Shown here one piece after another: positions 14,790 to 14,815 of a DNA stretch of 64,000 nucleotides. The stretch lies in assembly GCF_024502345.1 (NCBI RefSeq), contig NZ_JALDNN010000001.1. One strand, 5' to 3'. The stretch's first letter is position 1; every line of letters begins with the position of its first letter. The notes beneath the pieces are model-generated. The model was not told the DNA's origin, did no database searches, and was given only the letters and a program-made list of their open reading frames with translations. The position numbers and the translations under genes were made by a program. The DNA is from Escherichia coli. GTDB taxonomy: Bacteria > Pseudomonadota > Gammaproteobacteria > Enterobacterales > Enterobacteriaceae.

Positions 14790-14815
14790 TAAGTTTTGTT
14801 AACTGTGACCGATAA
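14790..14815 (+). promoter_or_regulatory. Candidate sigma28 (FliA) class 3 flagellar promoter upstream of ycgR
   Basis: TAAGTTTT-N11-CCGATAA against consensus TAAAGTTT-N11-GCCGATAA, about 35 bp upstream of the ycgR start. Confidence 0.45.

Follow-up and report, generated by a model that had tools for sequence, protein, structure and literature searches.

A sigma-28 (FliA) class 3 promoter ahead of the flagellar brake gene ycgR in Escherichia coli, beside a strain-variable segment

The motif upstream of ycgR in the stretch of Escherichia coli chromosomal DNA analysed here (64,000 nucleotides, hereafter the window) is, with a probability of about 0.97, ycgRp, the FliA (sigma-28) class 3 promoter of this flagellar brake gene. 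What settles the call is the position and strand of the motif, its conservation and published experiments, rather than the motif score. The promoter is already in the literature and in RegulonDB, and nothing about the feature itself is new; its confirmation here shows only that the adjoining strain-variable segment leaves it untouched. The features of the region are collected in Table 1.

As is well established for the flagellar cascade, FlhDC turns on fliA, and the FliA made is inhibited by FlgM up to the point at which the finished hook-basal body exports FlgM, whereupon free FliA guides RNA polymerase to class 3 promoters. At ycgR, the FliA-RNA polymerase would recognise TTAAGTTT and ACCGATAA, 11 nt apart, and transcription would most likely proceed from G14822, giving an ycgR mRNA with a 29-nt 5' untranslated region, the AGGAG sequence and the GTG start codon. 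Under this control, YcgR would be made along with the products of the motor, filament and chemotaxis genes and with PdeH/YhjH, a phosphodiesterase. Every flagellated cell would possess the brake, which would engage only when c-di-GMP rises. The promoter would in this way ensure that the c-di-GMP-responsive brake is made only in cells with flagella already built, and the control of YcgR is a textbook part of the enteric switch from motile to sessile life. The protein encoded in the window matches PF07317 (3.6e-24) and PF07238 (1.5e-08), that is, the PilZN and PilZ domains expected of a c-di-GMP-binding flagellar brake.

Table 1. Coordinates of the features in and around the ymgE-ycgR intergenic region (window positions)
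Feature	Position	Strand	Remarks
3' end (24 nt) of the TonB-dependent receptor gene	14323..14346	+	Also in K-12 (locus L002, 5984-6007)
ymgE, divergent neighbour of ycgR	14396..14650	-	PF04226; 200-bp spacer common to both genes
A-tract AAAAA	14768..14772	+	Some 50-54 nt ahead of the putative start; invariant in 8/8 aligned species
-35 element	14789..14796	+	TTAAGTTT, 7/8 against consensus TAAAGTTT; part of the published ycgR FliA motif
Spacer, 11 nt	14797..14807	+	Fixed length, free sequence
-10 element	14808..14815	+	ACCGATAA, 7/8 against consensus GCCGATAA
Inferred transcription start, G	14822	+	7 nt after the -10 element; RegulonDB ycgRp entry
Shine-Dalgarno sequence AGGAG	14837..14841	+	9 nt ahead of GTG; read from the sequence
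ycgR coding sequence, 244 aa, PilZN and PilZ	14851..15585	+	Open reading frame, RefSeq annotation, Pfam

The motif and the published evidence for FliA

The pair TTAAGTTT-N11-ACCGATAA lies on the coding strand of ycgR, with 36 nt from the end of its -10 element to the GTG at 14851, and it agrees with the consensus TAAAGTTT-N11-GCCGATAA at 14 of 16 positions (two mismatches). The initial annotation had read TAAGTTTT at 14790-14797, N11 at 14798-14808 and CCGATAA at 14809-14815, a string that is found in the window sequence exactly there. The recognition of a FliA-type motif thus stands, but its register has to be shifted, since the conventional one begins one base earlier, at 14789. Similarly, the CCGATAA that had been described as an intact -10 element is present, but the full octamer at 14808-14815 opens with A where the consensus has G.

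When both strands of the 64-kb window were searched, the ycgR site was the only one with at most two mismatches to the consensus, against an expectation of 0.05 from shuffled sequences (5 of 100 shuffles contained one such site). Up to three mismatches were found at four sites, for 0.63 expected. Scored with a weight matrix derived from 24 other strong published FliA ChIP sites, the ycgR site reached 15.4 bits, which is about equal to the best score in random 64-kb sequences (14.7 +/- 2.1 on average). As the matrix fails to single out the ycgR site, ranking it fourth in the window, and as its top match, at 54845-54872, is absent from the K-12 FliA ChIP-seq list, the score is a poor stand-alone criterion. 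The sequence match by itself is therefore suggestive rather than conclusive.

Direct evidence comes from K-12. The sequence TTAAGTTTTGTTAACTGTGACCGATAAA is the FliA ChIP-seq motif reported for ycgR in that strain (K-12 position 1243800; Table 2 in Fitzgerald, Bonocora and Wade, 2014; PMC4183435), and it is identical to window positions 14789-14816 over all 28 nt. Its fold-above-threshold (FAT) value of 67 is among the strongest of the table, and in the same study the normalised RNA-seq signal of ycgR dropped from 104 in motile MG1655 to 0 in the mutant deleted for fliA, a difference flagged as significant (PMC4183435). By qRT-PCR, ycgR expression relative to the wild type (1.0) was 0.022 in the fliA deletion mutant (p=0.00015) and 2.0 with pBAD-fliA (PMC4183435). 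FliA binding and dependence are thus published facts for the identical K-12 sequence. Together they uphold the initial annotation, which had proposed a sigma-28 promoter of a class 3 gene and a comparison with mapped FliA promoters, and they contradict the lack of FliA dependence that it had named as its refutation. In vitro, genomic SELEX with the RpoF holoenzyme placed a peak within the ycgR/ymgE spacer, at 1243852 (Shimada et al., 2017; PMC5493296). The binding and expression data were all obtained in K-12, and they are carried over to the window strain by the identity of the sequence.

The start at G14822 is that of the RegulonDB entry ycgRp (ECK120009895), reproduced in the supplement of PMC4183435 with HIPP/AIPP evidence, which denotes an inferred rather than a mapped start. 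The 81 nt of this entry are the same as the window sequence throughout, and the ChIP-seq peak centre and G14822 share the K-12 coordinate 1243779. As for a mapped 5' end, the transcription start site supplements of Kim et al. (2012) hold no ycgR entry, and Zhao (2007) makes no mention of ycgR. A sigma-70 promoter scan of 14300-15700 returned no sigma-70-like promoter, and a terminator scan of the same interval called no relevant terminator.

Besides the 81-nt ycgRp entry and the 28-nt motif, the window and K-12 have in common the gene, the interval between promoter and start codon, and ymgE as divergent neighbour. There are no differences in the promoter itself; eight substitutions lie upstream (14323-14744), and beyond ymgE the window has the iron-uptake operon where K-12 has ycgY. 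The layout TAAAGTTT-N11-GCCGATAA, with its 11-nt spacer and a start some 7 nt past the -10 element, is also that of tar, motA, fliC, flgM and tsr, whose expression is abolished or reduced without FliA, with a mark of significance for only some of them (PMC4183435). Relative to these canonical class 3 promoters, ycgR departs at the second position of the -35 element (T for A) and at the first of the -10 element (A for G). Its matrix score is 15 bits, versus 29 for tar and flgM, whereas its ChIP signal is comparable to theirs (FAT 67 versus 57 and 48). Its partner in the c-di-GMP motility module is yhjH/pdeH, which like ycgR has a FliA-dependent promoter outside the flagellar clusters. Both have a FAT of 67, and the drop in the fliA deletion mutant is equally large (0.027 for yhjH/pdeH, 0.022 for ycgR); the yhjH/pdeH promoter belongs to another locus and is nearer to the consensus (TAAAGTTC-N11-GCCGATAA) than that of ycgR.

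Conservation of the promoter

The ycgR locus is present in 5330 of 5426 complete E. coli genomes. The exact 30-mer spanning 14788-14817 occurs in 4378 of the 5330, and 927 further genomes carry a variant with a single change in the spacer, T14806C, which brings the total to 5305 of 5330 (4378 + 927). T14806C is the only common polymorphism of the motif in E. coli, and the two blocks are kept in both alleles.

A scan of species-representative genomes with YcgR recovered at least nine loci, with no Salmonella among the matches listed. Eight species were aligned, namely the window and a second E. coli, E. whittamii, E. albertii, three Citrobacter species and one Enterobacter. In this alignment TxAAGxT and CCGATA are invariant (five of the eight -35 columns), while none of the 11 spacer columns is, although the spacing is constant at 11 nt and the offset between motif and start codon does not vary among the aligned loci. 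Invariant columns make up 11 of the 16 in the motif, as against 29 of the 184 elsewhere in the intergenic region (Fisher p=1.2e-5; eight species). Likewise, the Citrobacter and Enterobacter sequences are 75-88% identical to the window in the blocks, 18-45% in the spacer and 40-59% elsewhere in the region. At the first -10 position, the consensus G is found in E. albertii, Citrobacter and Enterobacter. Conserved blocks around a drifting spacer are the footprint that one would expect of a two-block sigma-factor site. Well-characterised flagellar-related FliA promoters have been described as conserved in sequence in a preprint from the Wade laboratory (10.1101/188474). Outside the motif, the AGGAG sequence is kept in most aligned species, and the A-tract at 14768-14772 might serve as an UP-element-like contact.

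In E. coli strain 167 (NZ_CM132939.1; locus L006, 1530-1570 and 2610-2660), an IS903B copy sits exactly within the -10 element of ycgR, and its 9-bp target duplication reads CCGATAAAC. The pair of -35 and -10 elements that stays intact faces the insertion sequence, and ycgR is left with a copy of the -10 element only, an arrangement by which the promoter of the brake gene would have been knocked out in nature. A YcgR fragment with 95% identity to the E. coli protein was also found on a 381-bp contig of a Staphylococcus cornubiensis assembly (NZ_FXUZ01000104.1), and it is almost certainly E. coli contamination.

The adjoining iron-uptake operon and alternative readings

From left to right, the region contains an iron-uptake cluster (+), ymgE (-), the 200-bp spacer, ycgR (+), emtA, ldcA and cvrA, so that ymgE stands between the ycgR promoter and the variable region. 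The cluster consists of six genes at 7902-14346 (+), which code for a substrate-binding protein, a permease, an ATPase, a methyltransferase, ModD and a TonB-dependent receptor. With the stop codon of the receptor gene the cluster closes at 14346, leaving 443 bp up to the -35 element, which agrees with the initial annotation that an accessory operon ends about 450 bp away. Its view that the local regulatory landscape is intact is borne out as well: 14323-14900 is collinear with K-12 and 98.6% identical to it, and the last 100 bp or so before ycgR are identical. More broadly, the stretch 14340-14900 matches FDAARGOS_943 at 100% identity and thousands of other complete genomes at 98-99%.

The description of the operon as an insertion, on the other hand, probably has the wrong polarity. 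Homology between K-12 and the window breaks off at 14322/14323, which marks the edge of the strain-variable segment. K-12 is devoid of the iron-uptake cluster, yet it retains the final 24 nt of the receptor reading frame beside ymgE. Of the 5426 E. coli genomes, 2149 carry the TonB-dependent receptor; in E. albertii the receptor adjoins ymgE, with 87% identity. Because of this remnant, this frequency and this placement, the cluster looks ancestral, and the ycgY arrangement of K-12 is more likely to be a derived replacement.

The receptor gene and ymgE are convergent, and the 49-bp gap between them contains a perfect 10-bp GC-rich inverted repeat at 14354-14383. The predicted hairpin has a folding energy of -19 to -20 kcal/mol (z = -3.3 on the + strand and -5.9 on the - strand) and is followed on the + strand by CUUAUGAAAAUC, with no U-run. 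It is probably the terminator of ymgE.

Among the readings that depart from a working ycgRp, the one that fares best, although unlikely, is that the promoter is intact but silent in the window strain, with the flhDC/fliA cascade off or damaged. Flagellar expression needs flhDC and fliA, which like flgM are located outside the window, and the two IS903-family copies and the 10.7-kb deletion within it imply that the genome has active insertion sequences; against this, the window shows no sign of motility loss, and ycgR and its promoter are without decay. We would expect ycgRp to be active in this strain.

It is improbable, too, that in operon-bearing strains read-through from the iron operon, antisense over ymgE, adds a FliA-independent input to ycgR, in which case ycgR would not be controlled by the promoter alone. 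The operon (7902-14346) and ycgR are co-oriented and about 500 bp apart, the + strand hairpin (-19.2 kcal/mol) lacks a U-run after it and was not called by the terminator scan, and expression data from K-12 are uninformative here, as that strain has no operon. However, the hairpin is strong on both strands by its z-scores, an untranslated antisense RNA over ymgE would be a typical Rho target, and the FliA promoter is equally conserved with and without the operon.

On the ymgE side of the spacer, RpoD SELEX work predicted a sigma-70 promoter for ymgE only and not for ycgR (Shimada et al., 2014; PMC3946193). The -10 predicted there for K-12 ymgE, TGTAAG, reads CGTAAG in the window and in three other non-K-12 strains examined. 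Separately, the minus strand at 14690-14720 contains a conserved block, CCTTGCCTATACTTAG, with a CTATACT element resembling a -10, and ymgE has been listed among the sigma-S-controlled small proteins in a Salmonella sigma-S proteome paper. A more elaborate reading of the spacer would combine back-to-back promoters, sigma-S for ymgE and sigma-28 for ycgR, with the invariant A-tract (-54 to -50) and, in the roughly 40% of E. coli with the co-oriented operon, possible read-through from it, an architecture that could couple the brake to stationary-phase or iron signals. This reading is speculative and its probability very low; its elements are individually ordinary.

That the motif arose by chance and some other signal drives ycgR has next to no probability. 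A score of 15.4 bits can be reached in random 64-kb sequences, and higher-scoring, apparently unbound sites such as that at 54845-54872 exist in the window, but this idea is effectively refuted already by the published data on the identical sequence, which FliA binds in vivo and which depends on it completely, by the two-block footprint at a fixed distance from the start codon across three genera, and by the near-universal presence of the motif in E. coli.

Other FliA-like sites and features of the window

A second FliA site of the K-12 list lies downstream of ycgRp. In the ldcA/cvrA interval, TAAGTAAAACGCTGTCTCTGCCGCTAAT at 17232-17259 (+) is identical to the weak FliA ChIP-seq site of cvrA in K-12, which has a FAT of 2 and an expression of 43, compared with 28 in the fliA deletion mutant, a change not flagged as significant (PMC4183435). 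With ycgR and cvrA both in the ChIP list, the window holds two published FliA sites. The top match to the FliA matrix is TAAAAATAACGCCCATAATGCCGATAAA at 54845-54872 (-), which at 21-22 bits scores above all 100 random sequences. It is antisense within a gene for a 153-aa DUF3592 protein (ymfA-like), downstream of potD.

The two IS903-family copies, at 37103-38160 and 54990-56047, are each 1058 bp long and encode a DDE transposase; they are 100% identical and in direct orientation. The second one stands after the ymfA-like gene. The first replaces about 10.7 kb that are present in FDAARGOS_943, from ymgJ to bluR, and the missing segment includes the c-di-GMP and biofilm regulators ycgH, pdeG, ycgZ-ymgA-ariR-ymgC and bluF. 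Collinearity of the window with FDAARGOS_943 throughout was considered and rejected, as it fails beyond about 37 kb.

Finally, the cvrA/dadX interval contains an open reading frame of 478 aa at 19664-21100 (+) with a weak leucine-rich-repeat match (PF12799, 5.4e-07). It sits in a segment of about 1.9 kb that is absent from K-12 at that position, and it is annotated as "hypothetical" in FDAARGOS_943.
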